Under the pieces are notes generated by a model. The model was not told the DNA's origin. It worked only from the letters and a program-made list of their open reading frames with translations, and did not search any database. The translations under genes and the position numbers were made by a program. A stretch of DNA of 64,000 bases, from contig JAKAYL010000002.1 in NCBI GenBank assembly GCA_021809545.1, forward strand, positions 2,340-66,339. Direction: 5' to 3'. Of the stretch, positions 31,168-64,000 are shown one piece after another. The DNA comes from Thermoplasmata archaeon. GTDB lineage: Archaea > Thermoplasmatota > Thermoplasmata > Lutacidiplasmatales > UBA184. The first letter of the stretch is position 1. Each line of letters opens with the position of its first letter.

Positions 31168-31305
31168 GCGGAATCCAGACTTCGTACTTCCACCCCTCTG
31201 GGCTGTTATGACATGGCAAGTATATAATCCGTTCTCAGGAATCCGCCGGGCCAAGGACGAGGGTCGGTCCCGTTCCGGGGGAACTTCTCCCCGTGAGGGG
31301 CCGGT

Positions 31306-44909: not shown

Positions 44910-44963
44910 CCCTCCTTGGGGACTCCCGGGACGGCCGTACCTGCGGATCGCTCGACCACGGAT

Positions 44964-46925: not shown

Positions 46926-47731
46926 GCTTCCCCCTTCGCGTCGGCGGCAGGCTCCGCAGGCTCGCCTTCGGTCCGGCCCGACAAGCGCAGGTGGGCCTCC
47001 AGTTCGACGAGCTTCTCCGAAAGTGCCACAAAGTCCGAGGCGGAGGAAGCGAGGCATCGGCTGCAACCTTCCTCCTTCGTGCCCCGAGAGAGCGCGAGGG
47101 CCTTGGCACGGAGATCGGAATCGAAACCGCTGTATCCGGAGAGCAACGCCCGGTTCATCGCCGGGAACATGGTCCTAGGATTGTACGGACAGTTCGGGCA
47201 GTCCAGGTGCCTTACGACCCGAAGGATGGCGGCACGCTCCGACCGCAGGTGGCGGGCGACCTCGGCCGCATGCTTTGGCCCCGAGATCCGGAACGTGGGG
47301 TCGGCCGAGAGCAACGGACCGGGGAGCACTCCCGGGCCCGAGGCCATCGCCTCCAGCTCTGCGATGACGCCATCCACCTGCCCGTCAGGGAAGATGAGCC
47401 CCGCAGTGAAGGGGTGAGGCGACCGTAGGGAGAACTGCTCGATGAGCTTGGTGAGCGCGACGAGGGTCTTCAGGAAACGGACCGAGTCCCCGACGTACTG
47501 CCGCTCCATCGCCCCCGTGATGGTGATGGTGTCCACGTAGGGCTCCGTGGTGAGGATGTGGGTGACGACCGACATGCATTGCGAACTCAGTATCCCGGAG
47601 GGCCCTTCGCAAGCCGCGCACTTGAGGACGAGGTTCATCGACCGGCCCTCGGACTTGATCTCGTAGGTGAACTGCGGAAGTCGGTTGGCGTAACTGGTGG
47701 CCTCTCCTTTGGTGTTCTTTGCTTTCGTCAT
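46922..47731 (-). CDS. Cys-rich soluble protein coupled to the secretion ATPase
   Basis: CAAC...C, CPNC and CSRC; ATGA overlaps on both sides. Confidence 0.7.
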   Translation of the reverse strand: MTKAKNTKGEATSYANRLPQFTYEIKSEGRSMNLVLKCAACEGPSGILSSQCMSVVTHILTTEPYVDTITITGAMERQYVGDSVRFLKTLVALTKLIEQFSLRSPHPFTAGLIFPDGQVDGVIAELEAMASGPGVLPGPLLSADPTFRISGPKHAAEVARHLRSERAAILRVVRHLDCPNCPYNPRTMFPAMNRALLSGYSGFDSDLRAKALALSRGTKEEGCSRCLASSASDFVALSEKLVELEAHLRLSGRTEGEPAEPAADAKGEA

Positions 47732-49455
47732 GTTTCGCTCCCCCGCTGACGGGAAATGGTCCTCCAAGCGACGTAGGCTACTGCGCCCGCGACCACGAGG
47801 CCGATCGACCCGTACTCGAGATAGACGAAGGGGTCGAGGGCGGGCGGTGCGGCTGCGGTGGTCACCACGATGGCCACGGAGGTGGACGTCCGCTGTCCCT
47901 GGAAGGCCGAGATCACGACAGTGACGGTGTAATTGGTGGAGAAGCTCAGCCCTCCGACGGTCACCGGCCCGGGAAGGGCCACGGAGAAGTCCTTGGGGAG
48001 CACGGAATTCCCGCCTGGGACCTGGGGAACCACGCTGAGCGATATCCCGGTGAATCCCACGACGGTCGAGGGGAGGGACCAGGTCACCGAGAGGGAGGCG
48101 GTGGGGTCTCCCGCCGAGGGAGAGAGAGCGACCGCGGAGGTCAGGGCCGCCGGTGGGGTCGGGATCCCCTCATCCGGGGCAATGGTGAGTTCCCAGGAGT
48201 TGGCCGAGACCTGATAGGCCTGACCGACGGCGAGCGTGGCCTCGTTGGCCGAAAGCGCGACCGAGAGGATGGCGCCAGAGGTCACCAGGGAGCGGAAGTC
48301 CGCCGTGGAGCTCTGGGGCATCCCCGGGTAGAGGTAGTACCATCCCACATTGCTGGTCGACCAAGAGACCTCGAAGTAGTCGGGAGAGGAGGCGGCAAGC
48401 ACCGCGCTCGTGATCCCCGCCGGGAAGACCGTGCTCCAGGAGATGGCGTACGAGCTGCACCCTGCGGTGGCGGAAGCGTTGAGGTAGGTCACCCGGGTAC
48501 CCGCGGCCACCAGCACCTGGCAGCCGTTGGTGGAGGAGGAGACCGAGAGGGCGTCAATGAACGTGTTGCTGGTGTCCCCGTCGAGGGCGCTCTGGGAGGC
48601 GACGGTGGCCGCGAAGAAGCCCGTCACAGCGGTCGCGAACATGTGGCTCCCGTCTCCGGAGATCACGGCATCGCTCAGCCTCTCGGCCGGACCCGGATTG
48701 GGCAACCCTCCGATGGGGCTCCATTCCGCCGTATAGGAAGCCTTCTGGCCGCCGCTTCCCTGGTTCCCGGAGAAGACGAAGACGGCGCCGTTCCCGTTCG
48801 CGTCGTTGGAGCCGACCACGAACCAACTGCCGTCCGTGTCCATCGAGAGGTCGGTGAAGCTCTGCCCCGTGACGACGGAGTAGAAGGCGAGCTGGGGAGA
48901 GGAGAGTGGGTTGGTATAGTAGGAGACGTTGAACCCGGGGAGATTGGTGCCGGGATCGACGAAGGTGGCGACAACCACGAGCGCGTTGCCGTCCTGGGAG
49001 ATCGCGGCGTGGTCTACCGAGCCCTTGACGGCGGACCCGTCCCCCTTGTAGTTGGAGCCGGTCCATATCGGGGAGGCCCCCGAGACGGAGTAAAGGTACG
49101 CGGAGTTGTTCGCCGTGAGCAGGACCTCGGGCGTTCCGGCCGGTCCCGACAGGGAGATCATGGTAGAGGTAGCATTACCCGGAAGAGACCAGTTCTCCAG
49201 CGGCGTGGACGAGCTCGTGCCGAAGAGGTACGCATGATCCCCTGTGGAGGTGGCGACAACGTAGGAGCCGTCAGGAGCCGTCGCCACGTGGGCGACCCCG
49301 GTGGGGGCTGGGGTCGAATAGTTGATCAGAGCGGGAGGCGCGGTGAGGGGATGTACGGCGAAAACGGGCCCGGCGGAGGAATGGGCGGAGGAGGGAAGGG
49401 CGGTGAGCAACAGGGGGACGATGACCAGAAGGGGAAGTACCTTGATCCAGCTCAT
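47728..49455 (-). CDS. Membrane-anchored beta-propeller plus FN3-like surface protein
   Basis: Signal peptide MSWIKVLPLL; repeated S-x-DG/APDG blade motifs; GLSFSTNYTVTV; C-terminal TM. Confidence 0.75.
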   Translation of the reverse strand: MSWIKVLPLLVIVPLLLTALPSSAHSSAGPVFAVHPLTAPPALINYSTPAPTGVAHVATAPDGSYVVATSTGDHAYLFGTSSSTPLENWSLPGNATSTMISLSGPAGTPEVLLTANNSAYLYSVSGASPIWTGSNYKGDGSAVKGSVDHAAISQDGNALVVVATFVDPGTNLPGFNVSYYTNPLSSPQLAFYSVVTGQSFTDLSMDTDGSWFVVGSNDANGNGAVFVFSGNQGSGGQKASYTAEWSPIGGLPNPGPAERLSDAVISGDGSHMFATAVTGFFAATVASQSALDGDTSNTFIDALSVSSSTNGCQVLVAAGTRVTYLNASATAGCSSYAISWSTVFPAGITSAVLAASSPDYFEVSWSTSNVGWYYLYPGMPQSSTADFRSLVTSGAILSVALSANEATLAVGQAYQVSANSWELTIAPDEGIPTPPAALTSAVALSPSAGDPTASLSVTWSLPSTVVGFTGISLSVVPQVPGGNSVLPKDFSVALPGPVTVGGLSFSTNYTVTVVISAFQGQRTSTSVAIVVTTAAAPPALDPFVYLEYGSIGLVVAGAVAYVAWRTISRQRGSET

Positions 49456-50132
49456 CCCCATACCCCGAGAACCACCGTGTCGAAGGAAGACGCGTTCCCG
49501 GTGACGGTCAACGTCGCCGAGGCGGAGTAGACGGTGCCCGATGTCCCCGCAGCCCCAAAGCCAGCGTAAACGCACGCGCTCGAGATCGAGCAGGGGACCG
49601 ACGGCACGGAAGTGTTCTGGTATTCCAAGTAGTATTCCTGGAAGGTCTGCGCATTCGCACTCGAGGGAGAGCCCATGGCGACCTGTGATGCTGTATCATT
49701 TATCACGTATCCGACCCACCCAGGGGACTCCAGGAGCTGCTCCAACTGCGCCCGCGCAGGGCCAGGGGCCACGGCCTGGAGCAGGCTCAGGTGAAGCACG
49801 ATCAGCTGACCCATGGAATAGTCCTGGACCGTCCCCGTGCCCCAATCCGAATTGAAGGCATGGCAGGGGTCCGTGGGCAGGGAGGGGGTGACGTTCCCAA
49901 CACAGAGGGTCGCGTTCGGCGCCGTGGCGAAGAGCAGGGATTGGAGCGCGCTCGATGCGTACGCGGTCCCCCCGTAGTTCTGGTCAACGATGACCGGGTT
50001 GATCGAGAGCATGGCGTAGAGGAAGAGGGTGGCCACCACGAGCAGGGGGACAAAGAGGACGATATCGAAGGCGGCGACCTCGCCGCGCCGGTCGCTCCCG
50101 CTGCGCTGCCGTCCCCGTGCCCGCCGCCGCAT
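49452..50132 (-). CDS. Type IV pilin-like protein (class III signal peptide)
   Basis: DRRG|EVAAFDIVLFVPLLVVA. Confidence 0.75.
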   Translation of the reverse strand: MRRRARGRQRSGSDRRGEVAAFDIVLFVPLLVVATLFLYAMLSINPVIVDQNYGGTAYASSALQSLLFATAPNATLCVGNVTPSLPTDPCHAFNSDWGTGTVQDYSMGQLIVLHLSLLQAVAPGPARAQLEQLLESPGWVGYVINDTASQVAMGSPSSANAQTFQEYYLEYQNTSVPSVPCSISSACVYAGFGAAGTSGTVYSASATLTVTGNASSFDTVVLGVWG

Positions 50133-51338: not shown

Positions 51339-54300
51339 TCAACGGGAGCGGAAACGGTCCCGGCTCCCGAGCATCCCTGGTTTCGCCGTGTTTGTGAGGC
51401 CCTTGTTCCTCCGTCGGAGGAGGAGAACGATCACCAAGACCACCACGACCACAGCGGCCACCGCGAGGAGAATGAGGGCTAGGCTTCCCGAGGAATTACT
51501 GCCATTGCAGTTCGAGGTGCACGTTGGCGGAGGGCTGGTGGAGCCGGCCGACACCTGGACGACCTGCGTCTGGGAGACCTTGGCCCCGGAGGCATCGGTC
51601 GCGTTGACGGTCACGGTGTAGTTCCCGGCCGATGCGTAGGTGTGGGTTGCGGTCCCGGTGGAGGGTTCCCCGGTCAAGACCGCGCTGGTGTCCCCGAAGT
51701 CGACCGTGACCCCCCCGTACGGGGTCGCCCCGCCCGTTACGTCCCAGGAGACCTTGACCGAGAGCGGAGCCTTCCCGCTCGAAGGGGTGACCCCGAGGCT
51801 AACGGCGAGCGGGGGCAAGTTCGAGGTGACATCGATCGTGACGGTTTGGCGGGCGGTCCCCCCGATGGAATCGGTCAGGTTCACGGTCAGGTTGTACGTC
51901 CCGGGACTGGAGTAGACGTGGGAAGCGGAACCCGTCGCGGGCTGGCCTGCGAGGGAAACTGAGCCATCGCCGAAGTTGACGGTGACCCCGCCATACGGTG
52001 TGACGCCGCCCGTAGCGTTCCAGTTCGCCGTGACGCTGAGGGGGGCGGTCCCGTTGATCGGGCTGGCCGATAGGGAAACGGAGAAGTGCGAGTAGAGAAC
52101 CTCGGTTCCGGTAAGGTTGAGCGGGACGCCCGCCTGGTCACGGAAAGAGACGTTGACCGTGTAGCTGCCTCCGGTGGTGAAGTTGTAGGTCACCGGGGAA
52201 CCCGACTGCGAGGGGAGCCCGGACACGTTCCAAGCGAAGGAGCCGTAGGGCGGAACTCCCCCGGAGGCCACCACAGAGAACTGGATGCTCGCGGGGGCAT
52301 CGACCAGCGTGGAATTGGAGTAGAGCGTCGCCTGGAGCGGAGGAGCGGTGTAGTCGAAGCTGAGCGTCCCGTTCAGGTTCAACCCGACGATAACGAAGGG
52401 GCCCCCCGCATAGAGGACGGCGGCCGCCGGGTACCAGGCACCCCCGAGGAGCGGGGTGAGGTCGTTCAGGACCGCTCCGGCCGTTCCCGAGTAGACGACG
52501 GGCACGTTGGTCCGATTCGCGGACTCATTGCCGGTCCCCGAGACGAGCACGCTCGAGCCCCAAACGGCGATGGAATTCAGCGCGGAGGTGGGCACCGGGA
52601 ATATGAAGTAGGGCTGTCCGGAGAAGAACGACCCGGGGACCCAGGTGTAGGGTTGGCTACCGTTCAGCACCCAAAAGGCCGACCCGTTCCAAGCGACCGT
52701 GCCCGGGTTGGGCACGTCGAGACTGAGGCCGAAGGTCGTGCTCACGTTGAGGAACCCGGAAGAATTGTAGTACCAGAGATCCCCGGAAAGGGTTCCGCTC
52801 TCTCCCCCCAGCAGTGCGTCCCCGGGAGCACCGGGGATGATCGCGGTCACTCCGAGGGTGATCGACGTCACCTGGGAAGAAAGGTTCGTCCAGTTGCCCG
52901 TAGCGGGGGCGTAGGAAAAGAGACCACCACCACCGAGGGGGAGAATGCCTCCTGCCCAGAGCGAGGAGTTCACCCACCCCAGGCTGAAGAGGGTCTCTGC
53001 CGGGGAGGGGAGGGTGCGGAACGCCCCGGTGGAGAGGTTGTAGCTGAAGACCCGGGCAGAGTCCGATAGGTAGAGCGTGTCCGGGCCGAACGCGGCGGCC
53101 GAGAGGAGTCCGGTCCCGGACGGGATGAGGGACTCGAGGTTGGTGACATTGCGGGTGCTCAGGTTCACGAGGAACCCGTCACCCTGGGTTCCGTTCCATC
53201 CACCCATCCAGACCCGCCCGTCCCCGAAGACGAGGCTCCCGCCCGAGACGAATCCTGTGGGCAGGTCCACGGCCGAGGGAGAAGCACCGGGAGTCCAGGA
53301 GGTGAGGAATCCCCCCATCCCATTGCGGTAGCCACCGACCACGAGGGCTGAGCCCATCCAGAGGAGGGCCAGAGGATTCGTGGTGTTGGTCCACGGGGCG
53401 GAGAGAGACAAGGGGGAGACCGTAGAGAGCGCGGCATCGAGGTCAGCTGCGCCCGAGGGAGAGGCGAGCGTGAAATTGGTCCCCGCCACGCGGGAGTCCG
53501 CGGCGAAGGCCGAGGGGGTACCAAGGACGGAGGTGATCTGGGAGGTCACGTCCACGAAGGAGCCGGTCGCCAGATCGAAGACGCCCCAGTGGTAGGTGAA
53601 GGAGGAGGACTCCAGGCTCTGGAGGAGCACGTAGTTCCCCGTCACGGCCAGCGGCACGGCCGGCGAGGTGAAGGCCGACGCCGCGGGGAGATACCCCGAG
53701 AGGTTCTGAAAGGTCCAGCCCGAGGTAGAGTTGTACGAGAGGATCCCGAAGGTGTTTTGGGAGCGGTTCGTGGTCAACAGGAAAGCGCCTCGCGAGCCCA
53801 GGGCGTGGGAAGGGACACCGAACGTGGCGGGGATCTTGCCGCTCAGGTTCTGGAACCCCGAGCTTGCGTTGTAGGAGAAGAGCAGCGTCTCAGGCCCCGA
53901 GAAGCTCAGGTTCTGCCCCACGAGGAGGACCGAGCTTCCGTCCGAGGCGCCCCCGTAGAGCGTGCGAAGGTCGGGCGGTAGGGAAAGGTTCGCCGCCGCG
54001 CCGGTCGTAGGGTTCTGCGCCCAGACCCGGGACGGAGGGCTGAGCACGTTGAAGGAAGCGTCCCAGTAGTAGGCGGTCGGGGTGGGGGAGGAAAGTTCCC
54101 CGATCCCGAAGGATTGCCCGATCACGTACTGGGAGGCGACGCTCACGTTGACCGTGGACAAGAAACCGGAGGAGGTGTCCGAGAGGGCGACCGGGGGACC
54201 CAAGCTGAGCGTTCCGGTCTTCGGCATCTGCGTGCCGTTGTCCGTCCCTAACACGGCGACCTGGGTGCCCGAGAGGGGGAGAAGACCTGTGACCTCGGAC

Positions 54301-54530
54301 CAGGAACCCCCGGGAAGGGAGGGGATTCGGGAGGTCAGGTTGACGGGGGGCTCCGCGACCGACCCGGTGTCGAGAGGGCATTGCGTGCACCCGGCCGCGG
54401 GAACCAGGTCGGGTGCGGATCCCACGCTCCCGCTTCCGTGGCCCGGTAGAGTCGGGGCACCGGCGAAGGCCGCGGGCACCGAAAGCCCGAGGCAGGCAAG
54501 AAGGACAAGGACCGCAGGGACGCTACGCAT
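51339..54530 (-). CDS. Membrane-anchored beta-propeller plus PKD surface protein
   Basis: Signal peptide MRSVPAVLVLL with a TTTTAA box about 30 nt upstream; repeated N-L-S blade motifs; three PKD-like domains; TM followed by RRR. Confidence 0.8.
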   Translation of the reverse strand: MRSVPAVLVLLACLGLSVPAAFAGAPTLPGHGSGSVGSAPDLVPAAGCTQCPLDTGSVAEPPVNLTSRIPSLPGGSWSEVTGLLPLSGTQVAVLGTDNGTQMPKTGTLSLGPPVALSDTSSGFLSTVNVSVASQYVIGQSFGIGELSSPTPTAYYWDASFNVLSPPSRVWAQNPTTGAAANLSLPPDLRTLYGGASDGSSVLLVGQNLSFSGPETLLFSYNASSGFQNLSGKIPATFGVPSHALGSRGAFLLTTNRSQNTFGILSYNSTSGWTFQNLSGYLPAASAFTSPAVPLAVTGNYVLLQSLESSSFTYHWGVFDLATGSFVDVTSQITSVLGTPSAFAADSRVAGTNFTLASPSGAADLDAALSTVSPLSLSAPWTNTTNPLALLWMGSALVVGGYRNGMGGFLTSWTPGASPSAVDLPTGFVSGGSLVFGDGRVWMGGWNGTQGDGFLVNLSTRNVTNLESLIPSGTGLLSAAAFGPDTLYLSDSARVFSYNLSTGAFRTLPSPAETLFSLGWVNSSLWAGGILPLGGGGLFSYAPATGNWTNLSSQVTSITLGVTAIIPGAPGDALLGGESGTLSGDLWYYNSSGFLNVSTTFGLSLDVPNPGTVAWNGSAFWVLNGSQPYTWVPGSFFSGQPYFIFPVPTSALNSIAVWGSSVLVSGTGNESANRTNVPVVYSGTAGAVLNDLTPLLGGAWYPAAAVLYAGGPFVIVGLNLNGTLSFDYTAPPLQATLYSNSTLVDAPASIQFSVVASGGVPPYGSFAWNVSGLPSQSGSPVTYNFTTGGSYTVNVSFRDQAGVPLNLTGTEVLYSHFSVSLSASPINGTAPLSVTANWNATGGVTPYGGVTVNFGDGSVSLAGQPATGSASHVYSSPGTYNLTVNLTDSIGGTARQTVTIDVTSNLPPLAVSLGVTPSSGKAPLSVKVSWDVTGGATPYGGVTVDFGDTSAVLTGEPSTGTATHTYASAGNYTVTVNATDASGAKVSQTQVVQVSAGSTSPPPTCTSNCNGSNSSGSLALILLAVAAVVVVVLVIVLLLRRRNKGLTNTAKPGMLGSRDRFRSR

Positions 54531-54695
54531 GCTCGGCGGTCCACGGAGGCCCCCCCTCCTTAAAAGCGTTCGCGCGCAAGGGCCGCAACCCTCTCGGGGC
54601 AACGGTCCCTGAGCAACTCTGCTCTCGGAGATCGGGAAGGGGACAGAGGAACCACGCACCACGCCTTCCCTCTCCGGGTCCGACCGATCGATCCT

Positions 54696-57600
54696 CTACG
54701 GCGCCTGCGGCGCGGTGCCGAACCGAGAGGGCGGGGAGGCAGCGACCATCAGGACCGGGAACCCCATTCCCAGGTTCTCCAGCGCCGGATGCGTGGTGTG
54801 CAGGGCGATCGTAACGGGAGAGATAGCGTGGTAACCCGAGCCAGAGATGGGAGTGGCGGGGGGTTGCCCATTGTAGGTGACGTGCACCAACCAGACAGAG
54901 GCGGCCGAGGACATCTCCCAAGAGACGCCGTTCTGGGAATCGGTATGGGCATCCACCAGGATCCTTCCTCCCGAGGTGCTCACGATCACGGCGACATGGT
55001 CGACGTTCCAGATGTTCGTGCCGGTAACGTCGTTCCAGTTGTAGCCGATGAAGTCTCCCGGCTGGAGCTGCGAGAGCTGGGCGGAGGAGACCGAAGTGGC
55101 GGGGACGAGACCGTTCGTGACCGAGGTCGCCCACTTGGCGTTCAACATGTCCCCGACGAGATGGGGTGCGGAGGGAATGCCGTAGGGGCCGCCGCTCGTG
55201 GCATCGGGCAGCTTCTCGATCGGCACCCCGCCTCCACCATCGTCACCGATGGCGCTGCTCACGAAGTGGGCGCAGTCGCACCCGTTGTTGTTCTCGTAGC
55301 TCGTGATGGTTGCGCCCGGGCCGCCATCCTGACTGGGGGAGAGGAGCCCGCCGCAGAGCCAGAAGTACCCGTCCTTGTTGACCTCGTTCCAGTACGTGTT
55401 CGCGTAACTTACCGCCGCGTTCCGGTTGTAGGCGCCCGATCCCGGACCGCCCCCGCTGCTTCCCGTCGTGCACTGGTCGTTCGGACAAACGGTGGACCAG
55501 GGCAGATTGGCCTGATTCTGGTTGTAGCCGGAGCACCGGACTGAGCCGGTGCCGGTGAACCCGTTCGGAGCCCATTTGCAATAGGCGCCCGAGATGTAAC
55601 TGCCCCAGAAGCAGGAGAAGCTGTTCCCGCAATCCTGGTACTCCGCGTAGGACCATTCGAACGCGCAGGTGGGGTTGAAGTAAACCCCACCCCAGTCCGT
55701 AGCCCCGGAGCACTGGGAGTAGGAAGGGTACCCGGTGATCGGGCTGGGCTCACCCTGGGGCACCGGCTGGGGCTGGAGACATTGTCCCGACGGGGAGGTC
55801 TGGGCCGGATGACCCAGCTGAAGGATCCCGAGTGCCTGGCATCCCGAGTTGGGGGCAACGGTGGAGCAGGCCCCGCTGCCGCCCTCGATCGCCCCGGGGC
55901 AGAAGGTGCTTTCTTGGTACGCCATGGAAACGACCGTGATCACGAGCGCGCTTGACGGGAAGCCCCCGTTCATGGCGCAGTCCACCGCGGCCTGAAGGTT
56001 GAGGGAATGACCGTTCTGATAGTAACTCTGATCGGGACACCCGGCCCCGGCGCCCCCGCCTCCGCCACCGCCGCCACCACCACCACCGCCTCCCCCGCCT
56101 CCACCGCCGCCGACGGCGGGAGGGTGCTCGAGGGTGTAGAGGAAGTTCCAGAACTCGGTGTTGGGGATGGCAGCTCCACCGTCATCCAGGGCGAACCACC
56201 CTAGGTTCTGGAGATGGTGGTAGACGCTCCAGTTCGCCTCGGACTCCATCGCGGGCAGTGCGTTCGGGCTCCCCGCACAGTTGACGGAGCTGAGCAGCGC
56301 CCCCAACTGGTTTCCCGTAAGGCCCGCGGCCTGGAGGGTTTGGATGGCCTGCTCGTAACCCGTGACCGAGCAGGTGAAGTCCTTGAGGTACCAGGTGACG
56401 CCCGCCCCCGCCATGGCGGGGAGGAACCAGAAGTCACTGCCCGAGTTGCCGGTCTCCCAGAGGCTGGAGGAGCCGACGAGGGCATCCAATTGGAGTCCCT
56501 TGGCCTTGAGCGCGGAGGCGAAGCTGTGCATGAAGTTGCCGAAGAGAACACCCTCGCCGCTCGAGACGCCGACCCCGTCACAAGGAGTGGGCTCGAAGTC
56601 CACGACATAGCCCTTGTACCCGCTAGCCTGGGCGACCCCGACAGCCGACTGGATGAAATGGGCCTGGGCCCCTGCTCCGGAGGAGAGGAAGGTCTGCAAC
56701 GATGCGGCGGGGCACCCCCCCGCGGTAATGGTTGCGAACACCGGGAGACTGTTCTTCTGACCCCAGGAAGTGAGGTTGTTCTGGGGGTTGAGGAACCAGG
56801 AGGCGGGCTCAAAGCCGCCAGACGGAGTGAGTTCGTAACCGTACTCCGCGAGGTCCTGCATGTCGGGAACGAGAGCGGTGTAGGTCGAGGAGAAGGCCGA
56901 GGCATTTCCGATCCAGGCACACGACTGGCAGACGACCGGGAGGAAGTATGCGGGCGGCGCAGTGATGGCCACGGCGATCACCGAGGTAGCGGTCGTGCCC
57001 TGCCCGTCCGTCACGGTGAGGGTGGCGGTGTAGCGGCCCTCGGCGGAGTAGACGTGAGCGGGGTTCTGAGAAGTGCTCGTACTTCCGTCGCCGAAGTTCC
57101 AAGAGTAGGCATAGGGTGGGAGCCCTCCCGCGGCGGCTCCTTCAAATTGGAATGTCGTGGCCGATGCTTCCCCGCTTCCGGGGGAGACGGACGCCCTGGC
57201 GGTGAGCTTCGGCACCTTGACCGTGATGGCGAAGGTATTCGACACCGAGTTCCCGGCGCTGTCCCTGACGGTCAGGGTCGCCTGGTAGTTGCCCTGGGCG
57301 GTATAGTTGTGGGACGTCGCCGAAGAGTAATTCAACGCACTATTGTCCCCGAAGTTCCATGTGTAGTTGTAGGGAGGGCTGCCGCCCGAGGGGGTGGTGG
57401 CGAAGTTGACCTGGAGCGGAATGTTCCCACTCACCGGACCGACCGTGTTGCTCACCTTCAGGGGTCCGCCGATGCCACCTCCCCCTCCTCCGGCGCATCC
57501 CGCAGGATACTGCCATAGCATCCATTGCTGGCTATAGAGGGTCACGACCAGGTTGACGTCGACCGTGAGGCTGAGCCCCCAGAACTGGAGACCGATCTTC

Positions 57601-58874
57601 TTCAACCCGGCGACGACCTGCAGCCCCACCGAGAGCGAGAGACAGTACTTGAACGAGGACAAGGTGGCGGTCAGTTGTCCCTGGAAGTCGAGGTAGGGGC
57701 GGATGTAGAAATAGGGCCCGACGATGGAATAGTAGAATTTCGTGTCGACCTTCGGCACGTCGGCGTAGGCCCATACATCGAAAGAGGCCTGCAGGGTCGG
57801 GGCGGTGACCGTCGTAGTGTTACTATACTTGCTGATCGGCTGCCATCCGTTCGCGGAGCTGTACTCGAATCCCGCCTCCGCGGTGAAGGTATAGTCGATG
57901 GAAGCGCTCACTTGTGCGTCGACCGTGACCTGGACCCCCAGCACGATCTCCGGGGTGATGGAAATCTCCACGGGGACCGGGCCGATGTCGAACCAGAGGT
58001 TCCAGGTGGTCAGCGGGTAGGTCACGCTCGCCTGGTAACTCACCTTGTCGGAGATCGAGGCGGAGAGAAGGGCATCGTTGGTCATCTCGAGCTTGACCGA
58101 GAACTGGTTGACATTGATCCCGCAAGGGACGAAGAGACACCACTTGAGGGAAACGTCGAGGTAGGCCTTGAGCTCGACATCGAGGGAGTCCGTGGCGGAG
58201 ATCGAGATCGTGACCACGTTCGACCCACCCTTGAAGTGGGTGGTGGTCTTCCAAGTGTACCCGTACGTCTGCGACCAAGAGAGGAGAGTCACGGTCCCGC
58301 CCGCGCTGATATCCGTGGTGACGTGCCCATACTTGGCCACCGCCTGGGAGTACTCCATCGGACCGTCGATCCACACCTTGCCCTGAAGGATGACGTTCGT
58401 GATGGAAGCGTTCGTTGTGTTGAGGATGTATTCTCCGTTCGCAAAGAGCTTCTGCGTGACCACCCGGAAGACCCCCGGCTGCTGGATGCTCACAAGGACG
58501 GAACCGGGCTGTACCCCCTGGATCTGGGTGGCCGTGTATCGGAAATAATAGACAGAGCCTTGCACCGCGAGGAGCTTTCCCATCGTGGAGGGCCCCAAGA
58601 CCATGACCTGTTTGTTGATGTAGACGCCCTGGGTCTGCACAACGTACCCATTGCTGAAGTAGGTGCCGTTCGCCACGGAGGTGGCATAGTTGTTGATATC
58701 ACCGACCTGGGAGGTCGTGGAGGGGACGGCCTTCGCAGAGACCGGAGCTGCCACGTTCCCCGGGGCTATCTGGATCGCTGAAGCACCGGAGGAAAGGACC
58801 AGGATGCCCAGTACGAGGAAGACGTAATGTGCGGGGTGGCTCCTCAGGCTCCACAGATCCTGCCACAGCGCCAT
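54696..58874 (-). CDS. Secreted multidomain putative peptidoglycan hydrolase: beta-rich domain, 2 PKD, GH18-like, lysozyme/SLT-like and Amidase_6-like domains
   Basis: Signal peptide; GYKGYVVDFEP; GF...MAYQES...GILQL...FNP; YNRNAAVSYA...DCAHFVS...LQPGD...DHVAVIV...DAHT; no C-terminal TM. Confidence 0.8.
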   Translation of the reverse strand: MALWQDLWSLRSHPAHYVFLVLGILVLSSGASAIQIAPGNVAAPVSAKAVPSTTSQVGDINNYATSVANGTYFSNGYVVQTQGVYINKQVMVLGPSTMGKLLAVQGSVYYFRYTATQIQGVQPGSVLVSIQQPGVFRVVTQKLFANGEYILNTTNASITNVILQGKVWIDGPMEYSQAVAKYGHVTTDISAGGTVTLLSWSQTYGYTWKTTTHFKGGSNVVTISISATDSLDVELKAYLDVSLKWCLFVPCGINVNQFSVKLEMTNDALLSASISDKVSYQASVTYPLTTWNLWFDIGPVPVEISITPEIVLGVQVTVDAQVSASIDYTFTAEAGFEYSSANGWQPISKYSNTTTVTAPTLQASFDVWAYADVPKVDTKFYYSIVGPYFYIRPYLDFQGQLTATLSSFKYCLSLSVGLQVVAGLKKIGLQFWGLSLTVDVNLVVTLYSQQWMLWQYPAGCAGGGGGGIGGPLKVSNTVGPVSGNIPLQVNFATTPSGGSPPYNYTWNFGDNSALNYSSATSHNYTAQGNYQATLTVRDSAGNSVSNTFAITVKVPKLTARASVSPGSGEASATTFQFEGAAAGGLPPYAYSWNFGDGSTSTSQNPAHVYSAEGRYTATLTVTDGQGTTATSVIAVAITAPPAYFLPVVCQSCAWIGNASAFSSTYTALVPDMQDLAEYGYELTPSGGFEPASWFLNPQNNLTSWGQKNSLPVFATITAGGCPAASLQTFLSSGAGAQAHFIQSAVGVAQASGYKGYVVDFEPTPCDGVGVSSGEGVLFGNFMHSFASALKAKGLQLDALVGSSSLWETGNSGSDFWFLPAMAGAGVTWYLKDFTCSVTGYEQAIQTLQAAGLTGNQLGALLSSVNCAGSPNALPAMESEANWSVYHHLQNLGWFALDDGGAAIPNTEFWNFLYTLEHPPAVGGGGGGGGGGGGGGGGGGGGAGAGCPDQSYYQNGHSLNLQAAVDCAMNGGFPSSALVITVVSMAYQESTFCPGAIEGGSGACSTVAPNSGCQALGILQLGHPAQTSPSGQCLQPQPVPQGEPSPITGYPSYSQCSGATDWGGVYFNPTCAFEWSYAEYQDCGNSFSCFWGSYISGAYCKWAPNGFTGTGSVRCSGYNQNQANLPWSTVCPNDQCTTGSSGGGPGSGAYNRNAAVSYANTYWNEVNKDGYFWLCGGLLSPSQDGGPGATITSYENNNGCDCAHFVSSAIGDDGGGGVPIEKLPDATSGGPYGIPSAPHLVGDMLNAKWATSVTNGLVPATSVSSAQLSQLQPGDFIGYNWNDVTGTNIWNVDHVAVIVSTSGGRILVDAHTDSQNGVSWEMSSAASVWLVHVTYNGQPPATPISGSGYHAISPVTIALHTTHPALENLGMGFPVLMVAASPPSRFGTAPQAP
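56052..56111 (-). repeat. Poly-glycine linker (20 consecutive Gly codons)
   Basis: Counted directly; all four GGN codons are used. Confidence 0.9.
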
Positions 58875-59141
58875 TCCTTCTTAGTGCCCCGCTCTCCCGA
58901 AAGTGACTGCGCCCGACGGCGCATCGTGTGATATATATTGGCATAGTACCATATATTCCTTCCGGTAAGAGACGGCAAAGCGACGCCCAGAGATTGAGAA
59001 AGGCCCCGACGGACGGTCCGGTAGATTTCGCTTCAGGAGGGGGAGGGGTCCCCATCTGGGAAGTCTCCCCCAGATTCAAGAGACCGGGCGAAAGCCTTTT
59101 AGCCCCGCCGAGGTTGCTACGCCAACTCACGGGGCTGGAAA

Positions 59142-59699
59142 ATGCGAACGAGATACTTGCGGGGGAATCGCCGAGGTGCGTTGGAAGGAGTGCCGTTGTA
59201 CCTGATCATTCTGATCGTCATTGCAGCGATCGTCGTGGTGATCCTGCTGGGCTGGCTCTCTAGCATTCAGCATCCCACGATAGGATCGGTCGCGACCACC
59301 GTCGGTGGTTCGAGCACCATGACCATCAGCGGGACGACCTCCTGTTCGGGAACGGCGTACTGGTGCTTCACACCGGACAACGCGACCGGAGGATGCCGCT
59401 ACACCTACCTGCAGTCCGCAACCCAACCCGCCGTCCAGATCCAGGTCCAAGACAGCCACGGGAATCCCCTCGGAGGGGTCACCGTCACGCTCACGGCGAA
59501 CTCGGGAGTGAACATCACAGGGGCCAACATCGCCAACACCGGGTCGAACGGGATCGCCGCCTTCTCCACGCTCACCGGTTCCGTTAACGCCAACACGCAG
59601 AGCGCCACGATCTCGGTATCGGCGTCCTACGGTTCGGGCGGAACCCCGAGCACGGATGGCGGTGGCACCATCATCGTAGACCCACCGGCTGGCTGCTGA
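59142..59699 (+). CDS. Type IV pilin-like protein (class III signal peptide); candidate major pilin
   Basis: GNRRG|ALEGVPLYLIILIVIAAIVVVILL; paralogous to 42276..42776. Confidence 0.82.
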   Translation: MRTRYLRGNRRGALEGVPLYLIILIVIAAIVVVILLGWLSSIQHPTIGSVATTVGGSSTMTISGTTSCSGTAYWCFTPDNATGGCRYTYLQSATQPAVQIQVQDSHGNPLGGVTVTLTANSGVNITGANIANTGSNGIAAFSTLTGSVNANTQSATISVSASYGSGGTPSTDGGGTIIVDPPAGC

Positions 59700-59731
59700 T
59701 CGGGGCCACCCCCCCGACGTGAGAGGGAGGC

Positions 59732-62700
59732 GTGCGCAGGATCTCCCGGCGGGACGGAAGGATACCCTATTCTTTCGTCGCCGTCGTCATCCTCGCCAGC
59801 ATCTTTCTCCTCGTGGCCTCCCTGGAACAGGTCTCCATCGCCACCACGACCCAGAACGCCTACGATGTTCCGGGCGCCACGCAGAACGCGCTTGCCCTGG
59901 TCGAGTCGGACATTTCCTCCGCCGCGCAGTACGACCTCATGCGCTCGGAGGCCAATCTCCTCGCCGGCACGGTCAACCCTTCCCTGAATCTCCTCAACGG
60001 ATCCCTCAACACAGCCTTCACCACCTCGATGGCCGCCCTGGGCCTCTCCTCGCCTCAGGGGTTAACTGAGGGTACGGTCGTAGTCAAGGCGAGCGGCTGG
60101 GGGATCAATGCCACCTTCGCCGAGGGGCAAGTCATGGACGGCACCCCGGCGGTCACGCTGACACCGGGTCCGACGAATCCCTACCTTCCGCTCCCGAACG
60201 AGGTGAACCTCGCGCAACAGACCACGTGGTCGTTCACGACCGAACCCATCTATCCCATGGCGACCGGTCACGTCGTCCTGACCGCTTTGGACGGTAACAG
60301 TGGGCAGACCCTGACCCAGAGCTACAGCTTTTCCGTGAGCGTGCAAAGCGAGCTCGGCCTCCTCGAAGCGAAAGCAGGCCAATTCCGGGATGCCCTCACA
60401 GGGCCCTCGGGCAGCCTCTCCGAGCTCGTGAAGTACCTTGTCACCACCCTGGGAGAGCTGCGGGCGCTCTCGGGGTACGGCTCCGGTGGGTACCCGGGGC
60501 CCACCTCCGGGACCGTGATCTCGGGGGCGACGAACAACTCCGTCCTGTCCCAGTCGGACGTTCGCGATGCCGTCAGTCTGGCAATCCTGCTCGATTCCCT
60601 GAGGTACTTCCGTTCCTTCGACGCCGGCGCCGTCACCTCCTTCCTCAGCAGCATGCCGCCGGGCGCCTATCAGCAACTCCTCGAACACTACGTCTTCAAT
60701 GGCACCATCGACCCCGCTACGCTCTTCCTGCTCTTCCTCGACAGCCAGGGAGGGTGGTCCGATGGCTGGGTCGCGAGCGGTGAAGGCCTGGCAAGCGCCA
60801 TCTATGGGTTCGCGGATCGCTTCAAGTTCGATCTCCTGCAGCACTTCTGGGGTGCCAATGTTGTGGATCCCACCTTGACAGAGCCCGTGGCCAGTTGGTC
60901 GACAGTACAGAGTCAGGGGACCTCGTACGCGATCTCGATGCTCTCTCAGTGGCTCTGGGACTACGGAACCTGGCTGGGGGTGACCCAGAAGTCCCTCCCG
61001 GCCTACAACAACACGGCGACCATCCCGGCGATGACGGCGACGGTGGCGGGATGTACGTACGTGCTTTTCCCAGGGGGTAGCATCCAGACGAGCGACCCCG
61101 GTGTTCCCGATCTTGCGAGCCTCATCTTGGGGACTCCGTACTCAGAGACGATCACGCTCCCGAATAACCAGCAGGTCACGCTGATGCTTGCCCCGGACAA
61201 CTACCAGATCTGGGAGAACGTCTCCATCGACAACCCCGGTTCACCCTACTACTACGCCCCGAACTACTGGATCGATTTCAACGAGAACGCGACGTACATC
61301 ACGACGAACCAATCCCTTCTGTGGCTCTTCAACCCACAGGAGTTCAGCTCCTATGACCCTGGAGCCTACGACCGGACGCTCCACACGGTCATGGTGGACC
61401 TCTCCAACTCGATGCAGCACAAGTCCGCTACGGCGGGGCTGGTCGGGGACAAGGGGTACCTGGATTACGTCGGGTACCAGGGTGACCTGAGCGGCGCCAA
61501 CACCACCCTGACCGGAGCGGGGCTTCCGAACCTCAGCACCCCCGCGGGCAGGAATACCGCGCTCAACACCTCCTACTCCTTCCTCACCAACGGCACCACC
61601 TCCCTTTTCCAGGGACCTTTCTCGCGCACCCTCGCAAACTTCAGCCAGCGGGCGGCGAACCCGGCGAACGTGACCAACTGGTGGGTGAACGGGGCCTCCC
61701 ACCCGACACTCGTCGGCCCGGCGGACCCCCCGACAACGGATGCCGCGAACAACTGGACCATGTCGGCCATCTCGAGCTACGCCGCCCGGGAGTGGTTCCA
61801 GATGCTCTACACGCTCTGGTACGGTTCGGGCGGAACGGTCCCCACCACGGCTCCCGCCGTGAACCAGATCAACTACCAGAACATGGATGCGAGCCAGTAC
61901 AATGTCGTCAGCCCCGGAGTGGAGAGGGCACCGCCTGCGCCCTATCAGGAACCGAACTTTGCTATCAACGTCATGAACGAGACGTTCTACTCGGTCTACT
62001 GCTGGATCACCGGCACGGGCACCGGGATCGGCTGCGGGGGAGAGGACGGGTACCAGTTCTGCCCCAACAACCAGAACTTCTTCGGGGATTGTCTGGGTGC
62101 GACGGCGCAGGACAACCCCAACTACTACTACGGCGCCTGCGGGGGCGGTAACGCGGGGCTCGCCTACAATGCCGCCCTCAACAACTACTACTACCCCGGG
62201 ACGGGTGGGCTCAACAACATGTGGAACGTGGTGCGAACCTCGGTGCTGCAGTCCCTCGCCGGAGGGGTCGACCAGATCCACGCCCTGCTCCAATCCTCGT
62301 GGGACAGTGTCTATAACAACACCGGGGACGCAACCTGGGGCGGGCAGAACTTCACCCAGTGGATCCTCCAGTTCATCGCTCCTCCCATCCTCAACGACAC
62401 CGTCCTCCTCGCCCAGGCGGGAGGCTGGGTGACCCAGCTGTACAACACTACCGAACGCTGGCTCTCGGGCGCGACGAACCTCAGCGGAACCGTGGTGAAG
62501 CCCTGGTTGGACCGGGGAAGACCGTACGCTTTTGCCCTCGGGAACTCCACCCTAGAGACCGCGGACGCACAGGTCTTCAATGAGAGCTTGAGCCAGATGA
62601 CCATGTCCTTCGGTGGCGGTGCCCTCACATGGTCCCTGCCGCAGTACAGCGTCCACCTGGTCGACCCGCAGAACCAGAGCACGAACATGGGAATCGCACC

Positions 62701-64000
62701 CTTCGAGACGAGCTGGTCCATCTCCCTGCAGGGTTCGCTTTCGCTTTCTCTCGTGAGCTCCCGGATGAGCTTGCTCTCCGGAGGGACGCTGCACCCGACG
62801 GTCCTCAATCTGAGCTTGCCGGTCAATTCCCAGACGCTCGTCACGCTCTACACACCCTGGGAGCTCGGGAGCGGTTGGGACAACCTCCCCACACCCCTTC
62901 CGGGAGATCCGACCCTGCTCAACACGCGAGGGCTCACGGGACTCGAAGGACACGACTATCACAGTGCCCCCGCTCTTCTCCCCGGTGTCTATCCGAGCGT
63001 TCCGCTCGATGACCTGCTGCTCCGCACCGCGGCCCTCGGGAGGGTTACGGCCGGCGAGGGGCTCTCGCTTGCGAACCTGCTGGCCGGATACCCCGGGCTC
63101 GCCTCCGGCGGCTCAGCGGCGTGGAGCCAGAATCTGACCCTGCTCGAACTGACCACGAACGCCGGGCTCGCGGCGACCTCCGGCACCTTCCTCACCGCCT
63201 CCCAGACGGATCTGGCGCTCCTGCGGTCCGACCTTTCTTCCGCAGCCCAGGGGGGCGTTCCGCTTGCGTTCGACTTCGGGGCGAACGCCTTCCTCGGCGC
63301 CAACGCGACCTTTGACACGACCGGGCAAGTCGTGAGCTACTTCTGGCCCGCTCCCGCCTCCCCCACGTTCGGTCCCCAAGAGGAGTACACCCTGACATTC
63401 CAAGGTGCCCGCGTCGGGGACGCCTTCACGATCGACAACCCCTTCGTTGTGGCGAACCCAGGAACGAACGGGTTCTCGGGCTCTTGGGGGACCAGCGCCG
63501 CTGGGACCTACCAGCTCCATTCCCTCTGGGTAGAGTTCGGTCAGAAGTACATGCTCAGTCTGAGAGGACCGGCCACCCCGGCCCCGGTCACCTCACAAAC
63601 CGCCACCTACCCCAGTCTCTCAGTACCCTATCTCTTCGGGAAGGGCGGAGGGATTCCGGGCAGCGTGAGTGTCTTCGGCGCAGGGGGGCTCCCCGGAACG
63701 GCCACCTCCACGTTTGTTGCCTCGTTGCCTCCCCCCGGCACCACCGTCACTTTCCCGGACTACATCGCCCAGCAAGAATACGCAGCTGGCCACTTCTATG
63801 ACGATCTGGTTTCCGGTGCGGTCCCCGTGCAGGCAGGGATCGGCGCGTTCGGATACTCGACCGCGATCTCCCAGGGAGGAGCGGGACTCGCCAACTACTC
63901 GCTCTATCTCACAGGGCCCACAGGAGGAGTGTTCGGCTCGGCCGCCGCGGAGCAGAACCTTACTGCGTTCCTCCTCTGGCTCGACGACAACATGGAGCCG
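59732..64000 (+). CDS. Giant (>1400 aa) protein with pilin-like leader, truncated at the window edge
   Basis: Missing from the ORF track. GTG 59732 follows GAGGGAGG and reads MRRISRRDG|RIPYSFVAVVILASIFLLV. The same frame reads sensibly at sampled points (ELRALSGYG, SDVRDAVSLAILL) through AFLLWLDDNMEP at 64000; not every codon was checked. Confidence 0.8.
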   Translation, partial: MRRISRRDGRIPYSFVAVVILASIFLLVASLEQVSIATTTQNAYDVPGATQNALALVESDISSAAQYDLMRSEANLLAGTVNPSLNLLNGSLNTAFTTSMAALGLSSPQGLTEGTVVVKASGWGINATFAEGQVMDGTPAVTLTPGPTNPYLPLPNEVNLAQQTTWSFTTEPIYPMATGHVVLTALDGNSGQTLTQSYSFSVSVQSELGLLEAKAGQFRDALTGPSGSLSELVKYLVTTLGELRALSGYGSGGYPGPTSGTVISGATNNSVLSQSDVRDAVSLAILLDSLRYFRSFDAGAVTSFLSSMPPGAYQQLLEHYVFNGTIDPATLFLLFLDSQGGWSDGWVASGEGLASAIYGFADRFKFDLLQHFWGANVVDPTLTEPVASWSTVQSQGTSYAISMLSQWLWDYGTWLGVTQKSLPAYNNTATIPAMTATVAGCTYVLFPGGSIQTSDPGVPDLASLILGTPYSETITLPNNQQVTLMLAPDNYQIWENVSIDNPGSPYYYAPNYWIDFNENATYITTNQSLLWLFNPQEFSSYDPGAYDRTLHTVMVDLSNSMQHKSATAGLVGDKGYLDYVGYQGDLSGANTTLTGAGLPNLSTPAGRNTALNTSYSFLTNGTTSLFQGPFSRTLANFSQRAANPANVTNWWVNGASHPTLVGPADPPTTDAANNWTMSAISSYAAREWFQMLYTLWYGSGGTVPTTAPAVNQINYQNMDASQYNVVSPGVERAPPAPYQEPNFAINVMNETFYSVYCWITGTGTGIGCGGEDGYQFCPNNQNFFGDCLGATAQDNPNYYYGACGGGNAGLAYNAALNNYYYPGTGGLNNMWNVVRTSVLQSLAGGVDQIHALLQSSWDSVYNNTGDATWGGQNFTQWILQFIAPPILNDTVLLAQAGGWVTQLYNTTERWLSGATNLSGTVVKPWLDRGRPYAFALGNSTLETADAQVFNESLSQMTMSFGGGALTWSLPQYSVHLVDPQNQSTNMGIAPFETSWSISLQGSLSLSLVSSRMSLLSGGTLHPTVLNLSLPVNSQTLVTLYTPWELGSGWDNLPTPLPGDPTLLNTRGLTGLEGHDYHSAPALLPGVYPSVPLDDLLLRTAALGRVTAGEGLSLANLLAGYPGLASGGSAAWSQNLTLLELTTNAGLAATSGTFLTASQTDLALLRSDLSSAAQGGVPLAFDFGANAFLGANATFDTTGQVVSYFWPAPASPTFGPQEEYTLTFQGARVGDAFTIDNPFVVANPGTNGFSGSWGTSAAGTYQLHSLWVEFGQKYMLSLRGPATPAPVTSQTATYPSLSVPYLFGKGGGIPGSVSVFGAGGLPGTATSTFVASLPPPGTTVTFPDYIAQQEYAAGHFYDDLVSGAVPVQAGIGAFGYSTAISQGGAGLANYSLYLTGPTGGVFGSAAAEQNLTAFLLWLDDNMEP

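Follow-up and report, generated by a model that had tools for sequence, protein, structure and literature searches.

The subject of this report is a single gene on the minus strand (54696..58874) of a 64,000-nucleotide stretch of DNA, hereafter the window, which comes from contig JAKAYL010000002.1 (positions 2,340 to 66,339) of the Thermoplasmata archaeon assembly GCA_021809545.1. The gene encodes a protein of 1392 amino acids (aa) in which a large N-terminal domain and two PKD domains precede three enzyme-like modules, here called A, B, and C. Judging from its sequence, this is probably a secreted peptidoglycan-degrading protein of a wall-less Thermoplasmata-type archaeon, with at least two working modules; we infer its substrate, its secretion, and its purpose (killing bacteria or feeding on their walls). 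The layout of the gene is as follows.

54696..58874, minus strand: whole gene, 1392 aa plus stop, intact according to the list of open reading frames (ORFs) and the translation
58776..58874, minus strand: putative Sec signal peptide, aa 1-33 (R11, hydrophobic core 17-28, ASA|IQ; read by eye)
57495..58775, minus strand: N-terminal domain of unknown family, aa 34-460, homologous in the two orthologues only (31-33% identity)
56961..57464, minus strand: two PKD domains, aa ~471-638 (PKD_4 E 9.5e-32, PKD E 2.9e-16, two stretches each)
56121..56957, minus strand: module A, predicted divergent GH18-like (beta/alpha)8 barrel, aa 640-918 (D759 at 56598-56600, E761 at 56592-56594)
56052..56111, minus strand: Gly20 linker, aa 922-941, read from the sequence
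55470..56045, minus strand: module B, Cys-rich and lysozyme/SLT-like, aa 944-1135 (putative catalytic E988 at 55911-55913; GILQ at aa 1016-1019)
54855..55439, minus strand: module C, Amidase_6 / NlpC-P60-type, aa 1146-1340 (C1201 at 55272-55274, H1293 at 54996-54998, H1310 at 54945-54947)
54699..54854, minus strand: C-terminal tail, aa 1341-1392, from the translation; weakly conserved in the orthologue P0002

In a Pfam search of the whole protein, only PKD and Amidase_6 scored above cut-off, with nothing else of weight, and an NCBIfam search added nothing to this. The N-terminus reads like a Sec signal peptide, and inspection of the translation revealed no clear membrane anchor in the C-terminal tail. 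The N-terminal domain (aa ~34-460) has no Pfam match, and an Atlas search with it returned only hypothetical proteins or DUF8402/8403 as leads; its only phmmer matches in the PDB were antibody chains, which we took as chance. The Gly20 run is built from mixed GGN codons rather than a pure repeat, and P0002 carries a Gly/Thr/Ser-rich linker at the same position.

The three enzyme-like modules

By its sequence, module C belongs to the papain-like cysteine hydrolases, of the type found in wall peptidases and amidases, and its triad is intact. The Amidase_6 profile (PF12671) matches aa 1149-1324 with an E-value of 1.3e-12 and 48.6 bits against a cut-off of 23.2, covers profile positions 2-154 of 163, and was confirmed on the genome. 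Pfam labels this family a "putative amidase", and we know of no characterised member. Among 20 modules of this type, C1201 (in DCAHF) and H1293 (in DHVAV) are invariant, and H1310 (in AHT) is kept in at least 90%. A profile of module C also finds NlpC/P60-type structures in the PDB, namely 7cfl (2.7e-5), Spr/MepS (1.2e-4 to 2.4e-4), CwlO (6.7e-4), and RipA. In these alignments, which for the triad include CwlO, the catalytic residues fall on the Cys of DCSGF, the His of HVGIY, and a His/Ala-Ser region further downstream in 7cfl, Spr, and MepS.

For module B, four weaker lines of evidence agree and give moderate support to a lysozyme/SLT-like identity. E988, G1016, and Q1019 are invariant in all 31 module-B sequences, the distant ones included. 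Sub-threshold Pfam matches to SLT (9 of 21), Phage_lysozyme2 (8 of 21), and SLT_3 (5 of 21) recur among 21 members of the family, while 11 of 28 distant homologues match SLT_3 (best 8e-5); the match lies inside the module-B region in all six that were checked (P0014, P0020, P0033, P0039, P0034, and P0036). When compared with six Escherichia coli SLT domains by hhalign, module B aligns with probabilities of 74.4% (47 columns) and 81.4% (53 columns) and E-values of 1.2e-5 to 2.7e-5, placing QES on the SLT ES motif (Glu on the catalytic Glu) and GILQ on GLMQ. The 210-aa homologue P0012, finally, has SLT sets as 17 of its 30 nearest clusters by Atlas features, and the named families among ten listed neighbors of its Atlas model (predicted template-modeling score, pTM, 0.73) are all lysozyme-like at TM 0.40-0.50, namely SLT_3, SLT, Lys, and Phage_lysozyme2. 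We regard these neighbors as a lead for a lysozyme-like fold, not as proof.

Module B resembles the family-1 lytic transglycosylases (Slt70 and MltC/D/E/F of E. coli; PF01464, PF18896, PF18013) in having a helix that ends in E-S, followed by G-[IL]-[LM]-Q some 25-30 residues on, and it departs from them in lacking an aligned AYNxG-type third motif, in staying below every Pfam cut-off, and in carrying a Cys-rich insert and a Cys-rich C-terminal half. Several results weigh against the assignment and, with it, against a second cutting module. The module itself gives no Pfam family even at E<=10; related proteins only reach SLT/lysozyme families at 0.0016 to 0.006 and the distant homologues at 8e-5, all below the gathering score. 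Its profile finds no relative among PDB sequences, an AlphaFold2 (AF2) model built from 21 sequences failed (predicted local distance difference test, pLDDT, 46.2), only 47-53 of its columns align to SLT, and the SLT reading does not account for its Cys-rich C-terminal half. Two candidate relationships were put aside: the factor X light chains in the PDB (E 2-4) were taken as Cys-rich chance matches, and the Phage_lysozyme2 match of P0015 (8.6e-15) lies at aa 354-495, whereas module B of that protein lies at 572-754. Since it adjoins module B rather than overlapping it, we count this match as co-occurrence only.

Module B can be described, from sequence, as a putative small, lineage-restricted lysozyme-like family that has so far gone unannotated. 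Among 1.84 billion representatives, 51 clusters match it at E<=1e-3 and 35 at 1e-10. The tail of the 51 probably includes false members, since unrelated families turn up in weak representatives (STI1-HOP_DP in five, UBQLN1 in two, and protein_MS5, CBM_1, and Lustrin_cystein in one each). All of the 10 module-B proteins that were looked up are unnamed or called "hypothetical protein", and one of them comes from Candidatus Micrarchaeota. When 185,579 species genomes were scanned for the motif, 23 loci came up, which belong to metagenome-assembled genomes (MAGs) of Thermoplasmata, to four Micrarchaeota MAGs, and to one MAG titled "bacterium". The latter (L046, L048, and L066) encodes an N-A-B-C protein whose layout and identities equal those of the orthologue in G001, a genome of the same genus as the window, so its title is probably a generic label, if the two are the same genome.

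As modeled, module A has the fold and family of GH18 and comes closest to the SleL/YdhD-like group. Seven GH18 chains of the PDB match, at E<=0.01, the profile built from 11 module-A sequences, among them 4q6t (3.9e-9) and 5jh8 (1.9e-5), as well as several chitinases and Bacillus subtilis YdhD (3cz8, 0.0034). The DFE of module A aligns on the LDFE/VDFE of 4q6t and 5jh8, with D759 and E761 kept. The AF2 model is a (beta/alpha)8 barrel (pLDDT 80.2, pTM 0.84) that can be superposed on solved GH18 structures, with 5jh8, 4q6t, and the spore cortex-lytic SleL (4s3k) tied as best matches in Foldseek. On its own, the module-A sequence has no PF00704 match and only GH85 at 0.035 in Pfam, and PF00704 has no match anywhere in the producer genome.

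The hallmark residues of this barrel count against an active module A. In the three N-A-B-C orthologues, the changes fall at positions that most or all of the other eight module-A sequences conserve. The first two Asp of DxxDxDxE are missing (K and V instead), and the Asn two residues before the Asp, present in 8 of the 11 aligned modules, is replaced by V, I, and V in these three (V in this protein). In all three, the hallmark Tyr (the "MDYTC" strand) is Phe (F833 here), as is the barrel-end Trp before ALDD (F894 here). Ala or Thr replaces the catalytic Glu in 2 of the 11 modules, both of them the orthologues of this protein. Compared with SleL/YaaH-type enzymes (4s3j, 4s3k) and with 4q6t and 5jh8, to which module A is 10-18% identical, it differs by N to V, Tyr to Phe, Trp to Phe, extra disulfide-type Cys pairs, and a Glu that is lost in the orthologues. 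These changes suggest relaxed or altered catalytic constraint. Given the changed hallmarks and the two orthologues that have lost the Glu, module A may bind rather than cut, and here it may be a weak enzyme or a glycan-binding domain.

The gene had been singled out by an original prediction made from the letters alone, and much of what that prediction read by eye holds up. Scripted placement puts all of its motifs where they had been quoted in the intact ORF: GYKGYVVDFEP at aa 752-762 (window 56589-56621), YQES at aa 986-989 (55908-55919), GILQL at aa 1016-1020, DCAHFVS at aa 1200-1206, DHVAV at aa 1292-1296, and AHT at aa 1309-1311. The two PKDs and the Amidase_6/NlpC-P60 call with Cys-His-His were confirmed by Pfam, the latter also by alignment to NlpC/P60 structures. 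The GH18 resemblance of module A is borne out by the alignment of its D-x-E to GH18 structures and by its model, and the SLT/lysozyme-like call for module B proved right in kind, given the hhalign result, the weak Pfam matches in relatives, and the Atlas neighbors. Three catalytic warheads, as had been proposed, are probably too many, considering that the catalytic Glu of module A is Ala or Thr in two of the three orthologues and that both aromatic hallmarks are changed in all of them.

Related proteins and the producer

The modules occur well beyond this one gene. A six-frame search with aa 640-1392 returned matches from 15 of 60 related genomes, the producer's own included: 10 of 35 in its own family and 4 of 4 in the second family of the order; the other 16 families that were sampled gave no match. 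By genus, matches were found in 3 of 3 genomes of g1, 4 of 4 of g3, 4 of 4 of g8, and 1 of 3 of g7, and genera g5 and g6 gave weak single matches only (E 1.1e-4, one of eight genomes each). With the modules delimited by tblastn mapping (A, aa 640-920; B, 944-1140; C, 1146-1340), the order N-A-B-C is shown by this protein and two same-genus orthologues. Other proteins have the orders B-C, B-A-C, A-C, and B-A, or contain A, B, or C alone, mostly with PKD repeats. In a collection of 5.8 billion proteins, only one match is of similar length (P0002, 47% identity).

Pfam searches of 29 family proteins from related genomes detected PKD in 17, Amidase_6 in 15, LysM in 4, SH3_3 in 2, and GH73 Glucosaminidase in 2. 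The LysM proteins are arranged as B-LysM-LysM-A-C (L025, L038, and L040) or LysM-A-C (L024); L038, like L039, is B-A by tblastn, and a weak terminal Amidase_6 makes it B-LysM-A-C in Pfam terms. In L013:147-2285 (G041) and L014:604-2529 (G040), from relatives within the same taxonomic order, GH73 is followed by Amidase_6 and two to three copies of SH3_3, which is the layout of a textbook bacterial autolysin in archaeal genomes. In the distant homologues P0013, P0021, and P0038, a canonical NLPC_P60 domain follows module B. In place of LysM and SH3_3, the protein studied here has its N-terminal domain and two PKDs.

The producer genome itself encodes at least three more genes with these modules. 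One is a 402-aa frame with module B alone (L041, G000:C27:84654-85859); another is a 1243-aa frame that combines module B with PKD, Y_Y_Y, and He_PIG domains (L042, G000:C27:145928-149656); and a 1187-aa frame has a weak Amidase_6-like module of 21.7 bits, below the cut-off (L043, G000:C34:8030-11590). In Micrarchaeota MAGs, module B sits in proteins of 1500-2250 aa (loci L058, L062, L064, and L065, and P0015). These loci have a GC content of 0.48-0.50, compared with 0.62-0.66 in the three loci of the "bacterium" MAG. In L062, module B is split over two frames, possibly by a frameshift or an assembly error. L058, identical to P0009, groups with Thermoplasmata-type modules and the other Micrarchaeota sequences with the distant group. 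Among the papers listed by our literature search on Thermoplasmata or Micrarchaeota and peptidoglycan hydrolysis, none deals with this protein family.

The protein is fast-diverging. Compared with its counterpart in the same-genus genome G002, the enzyme half is 47% identical and the N-terminal part 28%, against 79-81% for two neighbors from the pilus locus; the 1107-aa downstream gene stands at 38% and other neighbors at 54-68%. In a quick, unrooted module-B tree with weak support and many open forks, the module of this protein is nearest to the 402-aa paralogue (its own on C27, and that of G001) rather than to its architectural orthologues, and named Micrarchaeota sequences appear in at least two places (three changes). 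Together with the many domain orders, the tree suggests, without proving it, that modules have been swapped among paralogues and between the two phyla.

The contig is archaeal, as the original prediction had assumed. It is contig C36 of a 1.96-Mb bin of 83 contigs (98.98% complete, contamination 0.03), which contains on C13 a full-length archaeal small-subunit (SSU) ribosomal RNA (1484.6 bits), and the window itself encodes an archaeal-type S-adenosylmethionine (SAM) synthetase (PF01941, E 5.7e-164). Relatives with the same domains come from records titled Thermoplasmata archaeon. The gene, its downstream neighbor, and the T2SSE-ATPase locus occur together on G002:C15, with a local rearrangement, and in an independent DNA sequencing run (X13) a 35,868-base contig spans the region. 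The catalytic families of the protein are typically bacterial and one related MAG carries the title "bacterium", which would fit a bacterial or chimeric contig that had been binned with an archaeon. Set against the SSU, the SAM synthetase, the Thermoplasmata relatives, the conserved gene order in a genome of the same genus, the low contamination, the X13 contig, and the presence of the modules in 15 of 60 related archaeal genomes, such an artefact is very unlikely.

The prediction had also stated that Thermoplasmata lack peptidoglycan, and this agrees with what was found in the producer genome. At 98.98% completeness, neither a SEDS protein nor a penicillin-binding protein (PBP) transpeptidase was found. 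Mur_ligase_M has one match, as it likewise has matches in the archaeal controls Methanocaldococcus jannaschii and Haloferax volcanii. These results fit a producer without peptidoglycan.

Proposed function and alternative explanations

Peptidoglycan is suggested as the substrate by the company that the modules keep, since LysM, SH3_3, and GH73 share proteins with the same modules in relatives. Together with NlpC/P60 and Phage_lysozyme2, these domains are building blocks of bacterial autolysins and endolysins. The protein would be exported by Sec and then be either free or held at the surface via a partner; its conserved neighbor has a C-terminal anchor. The N-terminal domain and the two PKDs might serve as spacers or targeting parts and, perhaps with the GH18 barrel, place the protein on a bacterial sacculus. 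There, module B (E988) would cleave the glycan between N-acetylmuramic acid (MurNAc) and N-acetylglucosamine (GlcNAc), and module C (C1201, H1293, H1310) the stem peptide or its amide link. These two modules keep complete catalytic signatures and most likely do the cutting; the GH18 barrel may act weakly or take the glycan-binding role that LysM has in relatives. The producer would need no immunity, because it contains no such polymer.

Some points tell against peptidoglycan degradation. Pfam finds no recognised cell-wall-binding domain in the protein, and chitin is likewise a target of GH18, LysM, and lysozyme-like folds. A search for canonical MurNAc-salvage genes did not find AnmK, and the MurQ model reached only 25.8 bits where its cut-off is 302. 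Salvage of MurNAc by the known route is thus unsupported and lends nothing to a feeding role; peptides or GlcNAc from walls could still be used. The predicted peptidoglycan target is backed indirectly by the LysM, SH3_3, and GH73 partners.

One alternative is an enzyme for chitin or another GlcNAc polymer (e.g., of fungal walls), in which the GH18 and lysozyme-like modules would cut and the LysM of relatives would bind, and the fold alone cannot separate peptidoglycan from chitin as the substrate of module A. A cysteine amidase or peptidase would, however, be useless on chitin, yet Amidase_6 is the most widespread partner (15 of 29 family proteins); the GH73 and SH3_3 partners are typical of bacterial autolysins, and it is precisely the GH18 module that looks degenerate, so we hold this explanation to be unlikely. 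The same low probability applies to an action on archaeal surfaces, either on the producer's own glycocalyx or in contacts between Thermoplasmata and Micrarchaeota, which associate in nature. Module B has so far appeared only in Thermoplasmata MAGs, four Candidatus Micrarchaeota MAGs, and the one "bacterium" MAG, and the scattered Micrarchaeota branches of its tree would fit an exchange between lineages. However, a set of lysozyme-like, NlpC/P60-like, GH73, SH3_3, and LysM domains matches none of the envelope polymers known from these archaeal lineages, and no genes for peptidoglycan synthesis were found in the producer.

A non-lytic adhesin, whose enzyme-like modules are kept as binders to bacterial walls or debris, would account for the lost catalytic hallmarks of module A in the orthologue group, for a locus that also encodes large surface proteins and a T2SSE-type ATPase, and for PKD domains and a large N-terminal domain, which are typical of surface proteins. 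The Glu of module B (31 of 31) and the Cys and first His of module C (20 of 20) would not be expected to stay invariant in pure binders, which makes an adhesin improbable. A secreted peptidoglycan-degrading protein remains the explanation we favor. It is possible, though on balance doubtful, that this protein belongs to a fast-evolving, shuffled wall-cutting arsenal of mine-water Thermoplasmata and Micrarchaeota, in which module B, the GH18 barrel, and Amidase_6 are exchanged between paralogues and phyla. Such an arsenal would lyse or strip bacteria in acidic biofilms, with the GH18 barrel converted to a targeting domain of a weapon that is invisible to Pfam.

Among characterised systems, the cortex-lytic SleL has the layout LysM-LysM-GH18, and CwlT of the element ICEBs1 joins a lysozyme-like muramidase to an NlpC/P60 endopeptidase. 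The target of CwlT-type proteins is the wall of the cell that makes them, in the course of DNA transfer. A lysozyme-like module followed by an NlpC/P60-type one recurs here as the B-C order, as well as in seven related proteins and in distant homologues. The present protein differs from CwlT in having a wall-less producer, an Amidase_6-type peptidase, and an added GH18 barrel, PKDs, and a 430-aa unknown domain. Aciduliprofundum boonei is an archaeon related to Thermoplasmata. A GH25 lysozyme reported to be antibacterial has been described from it (Metcalf et al. 2014, eLife, PMC4241558); it is an earlier example of a bacterial-type wall-cutting enzyme in an archaeon, and it differs in being a single domain of another family without a multi-module architecture.

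The concept of archaeal peptidoglycan hydrolases is, moreover, already known, so that the bacteriolytic idea of the original prediction is not new. Strock et al. (2025, PLoS Biol, PMC12352652) report that 175 of 3,706 genomes of archaea encode modular peptidoglycan hydrolases. These stand out in Nanoarchaeota, Thermoplasmatota, and Halobacteriota, are patchy in distribution and shuffled in their domains, and are proposed to kill bacteria, as was shown for two haloarchaeal M23 enzymes on one bacterium. A text search of the main text of that paper found no mention of PKD, Amidase_6, NlpC, GH18, or SLT. As defined there (PMC12352652), such a protein contains at least one Pfam peptidoglycan-cleaving domain and at least one Pfam wall-binding domain. 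Our protein shares with these hydrolases that it is a homologue of secreted peptidoglycan hydrolases (secretion being predicted here) in an archaeon without peptidoglycan; unlike them, it lacks a recognised binding domain and combines three enzyme-like modules in a single chain. As Pfam gives only PKD and Amidase_6, this definition would miss it, for want of a binding domain and because two of its three modules are invisible to Pfam. Its relatives with LysM (L024, L025, L038, and L040) or SH3_3 (L013 and L014) would qualify if Amidase_6 or GH73 is on the list used there.

New here are the three-module architecture without a recognised binding domain and with two modules beyond Pfam, a lysozyme-like family that is small and lineage-restricted, a GH18 barrel that appears to be decaying, and a combinatorial family in which Micrarchaeota share. 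Should the protein prove active, then antibacterial or wall-scavenging enzymes of archaea extend well past domain-based surveys, and module B would represent a small new branch of the lysozyme-like superfamily, possibly of acid-adapted muralytic enzymes. It would then also offer a concrete, apparently expressed candidate for antagonism between archaea and bacteria, or for the turnover of necromass, in mine drainage. The shuffling of modules among paralogues and their presence in Micrarchaeota make this a tractable case of how such an arsenal evolves.

Genomic setting and RNA coverage

Near-identical sequence was found in at least 20 sequencing runs from at least nine studies, labelled as metagenomes of mine tailings, mine drainage, or sediment; 9 of the 20 runs may be the source of the window itself. 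In the RNA library X17 (a metatranscriptome), contigs that are 100% alike cover 54152-55459, 56196-56671, and 56843-58891. The depth of X17 varies from 0 to 901 over 9 kb, compared with a flat ~51 in the DNA run X13, which argues for RNA rather than carried-over DNA, although the contigs cannot prove a transcript. X17 contigs are missing over 55515-56116, the skipped Gly repeat included, and library X19 gave three short contigs; we draw nothing from these gaps. The contig at 54152-55459 spans the junction with the 1107-aa downstream neighbor, which does not by itself prove a single transcript.

At the other end, the X17 contig that stops at 58891 ends 17 nt upstream of the ATG. This end is downstream of an AT-rich stretch resembling a TATA box (aatatat ... 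caatatatatcac; window 58891-58940) that lies ~50-65 nt upstream of the ATG in surroundings of 64% GC. As read from the sequence, this stretch and the contig end may mark an archaeal TATA box and a transcript start.

The neighboring features of the window are listed below.

51339..54662, minus strand: downstream neighbor, 1107 aa, two PKD domains and a C-terminal hydrophobic anchor; adjacency conserved
44964-47066: T2SSE-type secretion/pilus ATPase (PF00437)
59142-59699: small N-terminally anchored Big_1-like protein
59732-64000: N-terminally anchored protein exceeding 1423 aa
14859-14932: tRNA-Thr (CGT), the only tRNA of the window

The 1107-aa neighbor also stands beside the orthologue on G002:C15, where it is 38% identical. 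The conserved locus on either side (42795-50132 and 59142-64000) further includes 704-aa and 615-aa proteins without a Pfam match, and its counterpart in the same genus (G002:C15:10122-24130) is 54-81% identical. Within the 9 kb of the depth comparison, RNA-library contigs are by far deepest over the small gene at 59142-59699 (590-901). Elsewhere in the window, large PKD-repeat proteins stand in a row at 9356-13105, 22370-24742, 24755-28120, and 28207-31254, and the third of these is a pro-kumamolisin (sedolisin-type) protease with PKD domains (PF09286, E 2.4e-26). This run of PKD proteins hints at a part of the genome where genes for secreted or surface proteins abound.

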